Positions 23,361 to 24,500 of a DNA stretch of 58,844 nt are shown here, piece after piece; the stretch's first letter is position 1; the number at the start of each line of letters is the position of its first letter. The notes beneath the pieces were generated by a model. The model searched no databases, was not told the DNA's origin, and saw nothing but the letters and a program-made list of their open reading frames with translations. The stretch is from NCBI GenBank assembly GCA_943354555.1, contig CALRCM010000002.1, positions 1 through 58,844 on the forward strand, given 5' to 3'. The translations under genes were made by a program, and so were the position numbers. This stretch comes from Candidatus Peribacteria bacterium (GTDB lineage: Bacteria > Patescibacteriota > Gracilibacteria > Peribacterales > Peribacteraceae).

Positions 23361-24500
23361 ATGGAAACACTTCTCCTCGCCGATGGAACCGCGTTCCACG
23401 GTCAGTCGTTTGGTGCTGCGAAGGATTGCGACGGCGAAGTCGTCTTCAACACCGGTATGGTCGGGTACCCCGAGAGCATGACGGACCCGAGCTATCGCGG
23501 GCAGATTCTTGTCTTTACCTATCCGCTGATCGGGAACTACGGCGTACCCAGCGAAGAAAAAAATCAGTGGGGTTTTTCAAAGAACTTTGAAAGTGAAGCC
23601 ATTCATGTTCGCGGCATTGTCGTTGCAAATGTGTCAGAGGATTACTCGCACTTTGCAGCGGTGTCTTCTCTCGGGCGCTGGATGGAGCATCACGGCATTC
23701 CGGGGATTACCGGAGTCGATACAAGGGCGCTGACGAAGAAGCTTCGGGAGACGGGAGTGATGCTGGGGCGCATACAAATTGAAAATGGAAAATTGAAAAT
23801 TGAAAATGAAATCCTAGATCCAAACACGCTAAATCTCGTTGCCGAAGTGAGTTGCACGGAACCCATTACCTACGAACCCGAGGGGGGGATCTGGAATGCA
23901 ACGATCGTCGCATTTGATTGCGGCATGAAACGCAATATCCTCCGGAGTTTTCTGAAGCGCGGTATCCGCGTGCACCGTGTTCCGTGGAATTACGATCTGC
24001 AGAAATCCAAACTTCCGTATGACGGTGTCTTCATTTCCAATGGTCCGGGGGATCCGAAGGCCTGCAAGGAAACGATTGCCCAGATTCGGTGGAGTATCCA
24101 GCAGGGGATTCCTACCTTCGGCATCTGTCTCGGCAATCAGCTCATGGCGCTTGCGGTTGGTGGAGATACCTACAAGCTGAAGTACGGACATCGGGGGGTG
24201 AACCAACCATGTCAGGAATTGAAAATTGATCCTTCGTCAGGCTCAGGAGGAAAATTGAAAATGACAACGCGGTGTATCATCACCAGTCAGAACCATGGGT
24301 TTGCCGTTGACGAGAAGTCATTACCCAAAGGGTGGCATGTATGGTTTTCCAATGCGAATGATGGATCAGTGGAGGGAATTACCCACGAGTCCGGAAAATT
24401 CCGTGCGGTGCAGTTTCACCCCGAGGCGACTCCGGGGCCCGAGGATGCGAACTATCTCTTCGATGAGTTTGTAGGAAGCCTATCCGTAGCCAAAAAGTAG
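23361..24500 (+). CDS. carA: carbamoyl-phosphate synthase small (glutaminase) subunit
   Basis: LLLADGTAFHG.SFGA...GEVVFNTGMVGYPESMTDPSYRGQILVFTYPLIGNYGVP and GATase motifs GICLGNQL / SQNHGFAV / QFHPEA. Confidence 0.92.
   Translation: METLLLADGTAFHGQSFGAAKDCDGEVVFNTGMVGYPESMTDPSYRGQILVFTYPLIGNYGVPSEEKNQWGFSKNFESEAIHVRGIVVANVSEDYSHFAAVSSLGRWMEHHGIPGITGVDTRALTKKLRETGVMLGRIQIENGKLKIENEILDPNTLNLVAEVSCTEPITYEPEGGIWNATIVAFDCGMKRNILRSFLKRGIRVHRVPWNYDLQKSKLPYDGVFISNGPGDPKACKETIAQIRWSIQQGIPTFGICLGNQLMALAVGGDTYKLKYGHRGVNQPCQELKIDPSSGSGGKLKMTTRCIITSQNHGFAVDEKSLPKGWHVWFSNANDGSVEGITHESGKFRAVQFHPEATPGPEDANYLFDEFVGSLSVAKK
23778..23813 (+). repeat. GAAAATT-type heptamer run inside carA (encodes IENGKLKIENE)
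   Basis: Sequence attgaaaatggaaaattgaaaattgaaaatgaaat is the same unit family as the intergenic GAGAATT arrays. Confidence 0.7.
24216..24264 (+). repeat. in-frame miniature element inside carA: heptamer flanks + GC core
   Basis: gaattgaaaattga-TCCTTCGTCAGGCTCAGGAGG-aaaattgaaaatga. The core's reverse complement, CTCCTGAGCCTGACGAAGGA, matches the rpsG-distal core at 17/19. Confidence 0.75.

Follow-up and report, generated by a model that had tools for sequence, protein, structure and literature searches.

The window analysed here, a stretch of 58,844 nt from a Candidatus Peribacteria bacterium (contig CALRCM010000002.1), contains the gene carA, in which two layers of repeat DNA are nested one within the other and translated as part of a conserved enzyme. 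The gene (23361–24500, plus strand) encodes the small subunit of the glutamine-hydrolysing carbamoyl-phosphate synthase (TIGR01368, E 8e-135). Its open reading frame (ORF) is intact and unbroken with the conserved catalytic motifs kept, and the CarA homologues carry the names Candidatus Peribacteria or Peregrinibacteria. Two heptamers, GAATTGA and AAATTGA (24216–24229; codons E286–I289 and the start of D290), are followed by a 22-nt core, TCCTTCGTCAGGCTCAGGAGGA (24230–24251), and then by AAATTGA and AAATGAC (24252–24265), which are units 4 and 5 of an array that is unbroken and five units long in orthologues. The core stands where the third heptamer would be, for a net gain of 15 nt (22 − 7). 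Its conserved 17-mer occupies 24231–24247, it encodes (D)PSSGSGG (residues 290–297), and 24216–24265 as a whole lies in frame and reads ELKI-DPSSGSGG-KLKMT.

An earlier note, made from the sequence alone, had pointed to this insert at 24216–24264, and the sequence is exactly as it reported, in frame. It had also counted 22 residues at a place where E. coli CarA has 9. Alignment of orthologues, which it proposed as a check, confirms the insert against both E. coli CarA (1bxr_B and others) and human CPS1, with a 13-residue gap opposite 'idpssgsggklkm' that matches this count. Those 13 additional residues are encoded by two heptamers, the 22-nt core and two more heptamers. The window CarA, incidentally, matches the glutaminase-like domain of human mitochondrial CPS1 (E 2e-95) better than it matches E. 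coli CarA (E 7e-71). In an AlphaFold2 model with a mean predicted local distance difference test score (pLDDT) of 85 and a predicted template-modelling score (pTM) of 0.87, residues 290–298 (DPSSGSGGK) form a coil loop (pLDDT 77–86) joining strands 282–289 and 299–308. The insert is predicted to extend the tip of a beta-hairpin loop in the glutaminase domain, which is the kind of position that the note expected. An assembly artefact is excluded because L001 and L002, independent JGI and ENA contigs that were assembled separately, share the array with the core at the same carA site (L-numbers denote compared loci from other genomes). The core also makes an AGGAGG (24245–24250) 10 nt before an in-frame ATG (Met301; 24245–24263 together), which looks like an internal ribosome-binding site and is probably incidental, because the L001 copy is without it.

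The older of the two layers is the heptamer array, as was seen by comparing 35 Peribacteria CarA proteins and the DNA of about 30 related loci. In these proteins, hypervariable site 1 follows GVMLGRI, and hypervariable site 2, the place of the insert, lies between NQPC and RCIITSQNHG. Site 2 presents a series that runs from short hairpins (CNEVGTKRC), through CxEWKDGKPTKRC without repeat periodicity and the five-unit array, to the array with a core. An unbroken array of exactly five heptamers occupies site 2 in seven related lineages; the empty site of L003/L004, for example, reads GAATTGA AAATGGA AAATGGA AAATGGA AAATGAC, and L006, L007, L128 and L132 have empty arrays as well. In the clade that holds the window, the array is always of five units (35 nt), encoding E-[WL]-K-x-E-N-G-K-[WL]-K-x-T. 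In the window and L001/L002 the 22-nt core has two units on either side, and in L005/L130 a different 30-nt core stands between two units and three. The heptamer flanks, which the earlier note took for parts of the inserted element, do not belong to it; they are a separate, pre-existing array that most Peribacteria have unbroken at this site.

Heptamer arrays are also a wider feature of these genomes. By strict scoring, 30 period-7 arrays were found in 443 kb of Peribacteria loci, with 5 of period 6 and 6 of period 8, and outgroup carA loci gave 4 period-7 arrays in 461 kb. The units are genome-specific (AAAATTG, AAGAATG, AAAGTGG, AATGGAC, ACCACTG, AGCGATC, AAAGCTC and others), and the arrays of one genome tend toward common units, both at the two carA sites and in intergenic arrays such as an inverted pair at purN. 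About half of the heptamer arrays in the window are intragenic and translated.

Copies of the core in the window and in relatives

The core is 22–24 nt long and has three to five copies in the window. Exact matches to CCTGAGCYTGWCGAAGG number two; when up to three mismatches are allowed, two are seen against a chance expectation of 0.03 per window, and none of 100 shuffles gave two or more. The earlier note had described the carA core as the reverse complement of an element found after rpsG, and its 17-nt centre is indeed the reverse complement of CCTGAGCTTGTCGAAGG at 33599–33615. That copy, GCCATCCT-GAGCTTGTCGA-AGGGTGGC (33594–33620, plus strand; family D15 in the repeat listing), is intergenic, is the sole copy in the window with a good stem (8 bp, −5.5 kcal/mol), and stands at the junction formed by a duplication of 42 nt from the rpsG 3′ end (33538–33579 and 33617–33658). 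The site is empty in L001, L003 and L130. The duplicated stretches comprise the last 11 codons and the stop, lie 79 nt apart and have 8 differences, all synonymous. The newcomer looks to be the in-frame first copy, because orthologues have an arrangement like that of the second copy with its downstream flank.

A third copy that the note placed in a cofE-like gene is present at 26521–26538 (CCTGAGCTTTGTCGAAGG) with a 1-nt insertion, owing to which searches allowing only mismatches missed it and an indel-tolerant search found it. It is part of a split array, GAAAAGA GAAAAGA GC[CCTTCGACAAAGCTCAGGACAGGC]AAAGAGA AAAG (26504–26554, minus strand), which is in frame, encodes SEKRKEPFDKAQDRQREK and lies inside an ORF (26195–26998, minus strand) with the F420_ligase domain (PF01996). 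Tandem Repeats Finder (TRF) reports CTCTTTT ×2.1 here, at 26540–26554. Array and core are both missing here from the close relative L128, and the basal lineages are without the insert. Another split array, the third that is intragenic and in frame, lies in ribD and reads AGAATGA AGAATGA AGAATTA [CCTGCCGGCCGTAGCATTGGCGAAGG] CTGGAGAATGAAGAATGA (40973–41037, plus strand), encoding FRMKNEELPAGRSIGEGWRMKNEQ. Its host ORF matches the RibD_C and deaminase Pfam families, and its insert has the CCTG...CGAAGG ends of the core around a different centre. A degenerate copy, CCTTCGA[AGATTTCGTCACGCTCATCACAGG]CAAGCTTAGGA (24611–24652, plus strand), has its centre split by 24 nt and lies in the carA–purN spacer; the corresponding place in L003 carries an intact copy, and the spacer of L001 carries a copy that runs the other way. 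The ORFs of carA, the cofE-like gene and ribD are intact around their inserts, and the peptides that such inserts encode, here and in L208, vary by frame (DPSSGSG, LRPSSGQ, PFDKAQD). The view that repeat DNA is translated here within housekeeping proteins is correct, because the behaviour recurs in the cofE-like gene and ribD.

In a neighbour-joining tree of CarA (347 columns, variable sites removed, without support values), the two core-bearing genes, those of the window and L001, stand further apart (86.5% identity) than any other pair in the array-bearing clade. The window has closer relatives with unbroken arrays (L006, 93.7%; L128, 93.1%), and so does L001 (L003, 89.9%). The inserts of the window and L001 nevertheless share the same junctions, orientation and frame, with cores that differ at 5 of 22 positions. 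Identical junctions in lineages that are not sisters suggest recurrent, register-specific insertion, or transfer, rather than one insertion followed by several exact losses. In L208 it is site 1 of carA that holds the core, cleanly inserted as 24 nt within one unit of an AATTCGG array and read in another frame (LRPSSGQ). Relatives thus have both filled and empty sites, cores in either orientation and a different frame, all of which argue for repeated insertion. Nesting in heptamers was seen at carA site 2, in the cofE-like gene and in ribD of the window, in carA of L001, at site 1 of the L208 carA and, for the other core, in L130. Six split arrays were found in about 400 kb of Peribacteria loci; all six are intragenic, and no intergenic array is split.

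The core across phyla and its nearest precedents

The core, with a consensus near CCTGYCCTGAGCYTGTCGAAGG and a length of about 22 nt, is a small dispersed repeat that encodes no protein. In all, about 12 copies that have one mismatch at most occur in 403 kb of non-redundant Peribacteria DNA, where by our own estimate about 0.02 would be expected by chance. When the 17-nt centre, CCTGAGCYTGNCGAAGG, was scanned in species-representative genomes, at least 120 loci were obtained. Among the matches listed are Chloroflexota, Alpha-, Beta-, Gamma- and Deltaproteobacteria, Bacteroidota, Actinomycetota, Cyanobacteria, Acidobacteriota, Nitrospirota and several groups of the candidate phyla radiation (CPR), with cultured isolates included. 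The core is not peculiar to this type of genome, and its family spans many phyla.

Among the same listed matches the flanks vary, and the first flanking pair is complementary in 84%, against 46% when shuffled. C-G, T-A and G-C pairs are all present at that position, and further pairs are modestly enriched. Many listed copies read ccgttcgYCCTGAGC..GAAGGRcgaacgg or (A)GCCTGYCCTGAGC..GAAGG, often beside GGTTCGACAGGCTCACC. Long open frames hold 46% of the listed matches as compared with 85% of random positions. Nesting in heptamers was seen in 2 of the 136 matches listed, versus 0.08% of control positions; the core lies within heptamer arrays of Chloroflexaceae (L052) and Leptolyngbyaceae (L011), and a less clean case occurs in Anaerolineaceae (L043). 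Folded as single-stranded DNA, core copies gave z-scores of −1.05 to +0.8 against dinucleotide shuffles, and the carA copy folds at −2.3 to −3.5 kcal/mol (z −0.02 and −1.05). These z-scores, with the modest covariation past the first flanking pair, rule out the hairpin as a strong structural element, and the core does not qualify as a palindromic element.

At the gathering threshold, Rfam had no match in the window, and 18 core-bearing loci of other phyla gave none at the core either. The core has no name in Rfam, in annotation or in the literature searched, nor was one gained by BLAST of the full hairpin consensus against annotated plasmids, for which all eight records are in unannotated DNA. 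A tRNA or tmRNA origin, a Tn3-type terminal repeat, an integron attC site and group II intron domains were considered by eye only and gave no convincing resemblance.

One close likeness is to the small dispersed repeats (SDRs) of Nostoc punctiforme and relatives, which Elhai et al. 2008 (Genome Res 18:1484) reportedly described as about 21–27 nt long and often placed within tandem heptamers. The mobility of these repeats is said to have been deduced by comparing related genomes. By this description the core resembles them: it is about 22 nt long, dispersed and without coding capacity, and has both heptamer nesting and filled and empty orthologous sites. Nostoc SDRs are mentioned in PMC5861425 and PMC3116915, the former stating that no such repeats were found outside Nostocaceae. 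The host here is a small-genome CPR bacterium and not a heterocystous cyanobacterium, the family of the core spans many phyla, and the split arrays all lie in frame inside conserved protein genes.

The earlier note had likened the insert to a Rickettsia palindromic element (RPE), and this comparison holds in part. As RPEs do, the core enters unrelated housekeeping genes in frame (carA, the cofE-like gene and ribD) and is translated at positions that the fold tolerates (PMC10969869), the hairpin-tip loop being an AlphaFold2 prediction. The likeness fails in size, palindrome and lineage restriction. RPEs are roughly 150 bp long (PMC10969869), and the features of a length of about 100–150 bp, a clear palindrome, a conserved peptide and restriction to Rickettsia are all absent. 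The core has instead 22 nt (7–8 residues), folds no better than shuffled sequence without a stable hairpin, differs in frame by site, is lodged within a microsatellite and is related to copies in many phyla.

Repetitive extragenic palindromic sequences (REPs) are 20–40 bp long; most are intergenic, and the minority that lie entirely inside ORFs of known proteins are argued to be neutral in loops or linkers (Di Nocera et al. 2013, PMC3733652). The core is likewise very short, dispersed and partly intragenic; it differs in having no GTAG/CGTC tag, strong stem or inverted doublets and in its association with heptamers. It does not fit RAYT-associated REPs or REPINs, and the window ORFs include no Y1 transposase and no REP-associated tyrosine transposase (RAYT). 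Nor does it behave as a miniature inverted-repeat transposable element (MITE), typically 50–500 bp long as against 22 nt: the junctions have no terminal inverted repeats (TIRs) or target-site duplications (TSDs), a heptamer unit is replaced and not duplicated, and the L208 insert is clean within its unit. For the arrays themselves, the counterparts are heptameric simple sequence repeats (SSRs) and the short tandemly repeated repetitive sequences (STRRs) of cyanobacteria. Shared features are the excess of period 7 over neighbouring periods, genome-specific units, inverted pairs, and variable length and sequence at the same sites in close relatives. For the GGGAATC-type heptamers of Nostoc and Xanthomonas, slippage has been proposed, and the arrays are described as intergenic (Rehm et al. 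2015, PMC4692102). In contrast, the Peribacteria units are A+T-rich and not G-quadruplex-forming, and about half of the window arrays are in conserved enzymes. SDRs within heptamers and intragenic REPs are closer precedents than RPEs.

How the core may have spread

The preferred reading, to which a probability of about 0.6 can be given, is that two nested layers of repeat DNA are tolerated and translated in a presumed surface beta-hairpin of CarA and that the core spread without an enzyme. The first layer, a heptamer microsatellite, probably grew by replication slippage from GAG TGG AAG of a shorter hairpin; local amplification is suggested because unit 1 matches that ancestral GAG TGG AAG (E-W-K). 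The array would since have been kept similar to the other heptamer arrays of the genome. The second layer, the core, would then have entered mid-array, where it now encodes the Gly/Ser-rich hairpin-tip loop DPSSGSGG. Its spread may have been at the DNA level and without an enzyme of its own, by recombination, gene conversion or template switching through dispersed heptamer homology, with the arrays serving as unusually permissive intragenic landing sites. Slippage could rescue an insert of any length, because each 7-nt unit gained or lost shifts the frame by one, and the insert would be close to neutral. Interruption by the core may afterwards stabilise a coding array. Among the window ORFs scanned, none has a domain of a transposase, RAYT or reverse transcriptase.

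Several points weigh against this reading. The recombination model is weakened because all six split arrays are intragenic, which it does not predict; a donor cassette, that is an intergenic heptamer array with a core, was not found in about 400 kb of Peribacteria DNA. The six coding cases may instead reflect selection for interrupted, more stable coding repeats, and recombination within carA could mimic independent gains. The sample is about 0.4 Mb of syntenic Peribacteria DNA, from which copy number and coding fraction are extrapolations, and the cross-phylum association of core and heptamers consists of two or three cases. In addition, a 17-nt centre kept across phyla favours a rival in which some conserved machinery or function recognises it.

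That main rival holds that the core is non-autonomous and is mobilised in trans by an enzyme encoded elsewhere, such as a Y1 transposase of the REP-associated kind that works on single-stranded hairpins, or by some other activity, which would recognise the conserved 11–13-nt centre and prefer tandem heptamer targets. This would suit a centre that is preserved among the listed matches while the flanks vary and the first flanking pair covaries with three pair types, the shared junctions in two non-sister lineages, and nesting in the unrelated units AAATTGA, AATTCGG, GAAAAGA and CACTCGT; a REP family of the GTAG/CGTC type in the window also indicates that REP-type biology is present in this genome. 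We still think it unlikely, given that the 58.8-kb window has no transposase-like domain, that the inserts have neither TIRs nor TSDs, that the hairpin is weak (z no better than −1.05), and that the core has neither GTAG nor CGTC, the tags by which RAYT-linked REPs are defined (PMC3733652). Alternatively, the core could have entered the array once, in a common ancestor, and then been inherited vertically and lost from most lineages, which would make it a fossil that is now immobile. The identical junctions, orientation and frame in the window and L001 speak for this, and 5 differences in 22 positions fit the extent to which the gene around them has diverged. It would take at least three or four losses, however, each restoring an exact five-unit array, and the inserts at L208 site 1, in the cofE-like gene, in ribD and after rpsG, as well as the orientations in the spacer, would be left unexplained, which makes the idea quite improbable.

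Retention of the insert for its usefulness, whether to stabilise a microsatellite against frameshifting slippage, for a function of the loop or of AGGAGG-N10-ATG, or as an mRNA hairpin, is very improbable. Selection for interrupted coding repeats would indeed give six coding split arrays and no intergenic one, and the core does create the AGGAGG upstream of the ATG, but unbroken arrays suffice in most relatives, the hosts (CarA, CofE-like and RibD) are unrelated, the peptides differ by frame, and the L001 copy has no good Shine-Dalgarno sequence. Chance resemblance, or an assembly or chimera artefact, might be thought of for so short an element from a metagenome assembly; it is effectively refuted by the shuffles, none of which had two matches, by the agreement of independent JGI and ENA assemblies, and by the intact ORF with its conserved catalytic motifs.

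A broader proposal makes the core (about CCTGYCCTGAGCYTGTCGAAGG) a mobile element of extremely small size, shared across the bacteria and homing to heptamer arrays, which would serve as landing pads and frame buffers in a general writing of loops in essential proteins. This is tentative and rather doubtful. If it were true, the rewriting would be most visible in Peribacteria, where the same CarA, CofE-like and RibD loops would be repeatedly refilled with genome-specific repeats, and conservation of the centre among phyla could allow the machinery to be traced by phylogenetic profiling.

The genomes of CPR bacteria are small and streamlined and, to our knowledge, not known for repeat DNA. In the literature searched, no description of in-frame repeat insertion in genes of CPR bacteria or Peribacteria was found, as the earlier note had supposed for this kind of genome, and no paper linking heptamer repeats with the CPR. 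Here conserved biosynthetic enzymes carry two repeat layers in their loops, and the same loops differ in repeats between related genomes. If this proves to be genome-wide, it would extend a Nostoc-type tiny mobile element in heptamers to an unrelated phylum and tie it to a multi-phylum core, and it would provide a concrete route from microsatellites and tiny repeats to the diversity of protein loops. It would also carry a warning for annotation, as PSSGSG, PFDKAQD and NPSPxGRGE peptides in conserved proteins would be passengers from the DNA level. Strains of Ca. Peribacter riflensis have indels of tens of bp in twelve proteins, with no repeat family reported (PMC4736985), and a genome-wide process of this kind may explain them.

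Heptamer arrays and other repeats at the locus

The other heptamer array of carA lies at site 1 (23776–23811, plus strand; AAATTGA/AAATGGA, 5.3 copies by TRF), encodes IENGKLKIENE and has no core inside. This second hypervariable site of the alignment is coil in the AlphaFold2 model, with a pLDDT of about 67. Downstream, an AATTGAG/AATTGAA array (25258–25289, plus strand) of the same unit family as the carA arrays contains the last codons of purN and its TGA stop. Its inverted partner (25332–25363, minus strand) lies 40 nt downstream, ahead of a gene for an FAD/NAD reductase. The 34-nt arms are 94% complementary, and the pair may form a long hairpin between the two genes; relatives have other units at both positions. 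Two more arrays of this unit family are AATTGAG ×4.6 (28138–28171, plus strand), which covers the stop of ORF 27618–28145 and extends into the downstream spacer, and an intergenic array between rpsB and tsf (58197–58228, plus strand). Intragenic units give no stop codon because G replaces T in the would-be AAT-TGA. The unbroken five-unit arrays of relatives (L003 10878–10909 and others) encode EWKMENGKWKMT-type peptides, which we take to be close to the designed tryptophan-zipper beta-hairpin trpzip2, SWTWENGKWTWK.

The loops that hold heptamers in one genome hold other repeats elsewhere. In L001 (about 4300–4400), the cofE-like loop has an octamer array, CAAACCAG ×4, in place of heptamers and core, and further lineage-specific tandem repeats occupy it in L003, L208, L210 and L150. 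Two more small GC-rich families are found in the same CarA loops and spacers of relatives, CCCCACTTCG...CGNGGGGCAGG and a hairpin CCCCTCYCC-N3-4-GGRGAGGGG, the latter giving peptides such as NPSPxGRGE. Their sites are L130 7923–7984, the carA–purN spacers of L007 and L130, L210 10394–10495 and 10832–10954, site 1 of L151 and site 2 of L146. The favoured set of small elements seems to differ genome by genome.

Within the window, a REP-like palindromic family separate from the core, CCGTAGAGACGYAC-N5-GTRCGTCTCTACGG, occurs at 28660–28693, 47322–47351, 52492–52520, 52880–52907 and 53152–53179. It bears GTAG and CGTC tags like the REP super-families (PMC3733652), and a RAYT-like gene was not seen in the window. 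A 36-nt overlapping palindrome of the 8-nt repeats TACGGGAA and TATTCCCT (55723–55784) lies just upstream of a PLD-like gene. The 2559-aa ORF at 13311–20990 has a 12-nt repeat (10.5 copies of AAGAGCCCGTCA, 19342–19467) and repeats of about 243 nt (18845–19726), and a repeat of 9 nt (7.4 copies of CACCAGCAA, 3907–3973) lies in another ORF; all of these are ordinary in-frame coding repeats.

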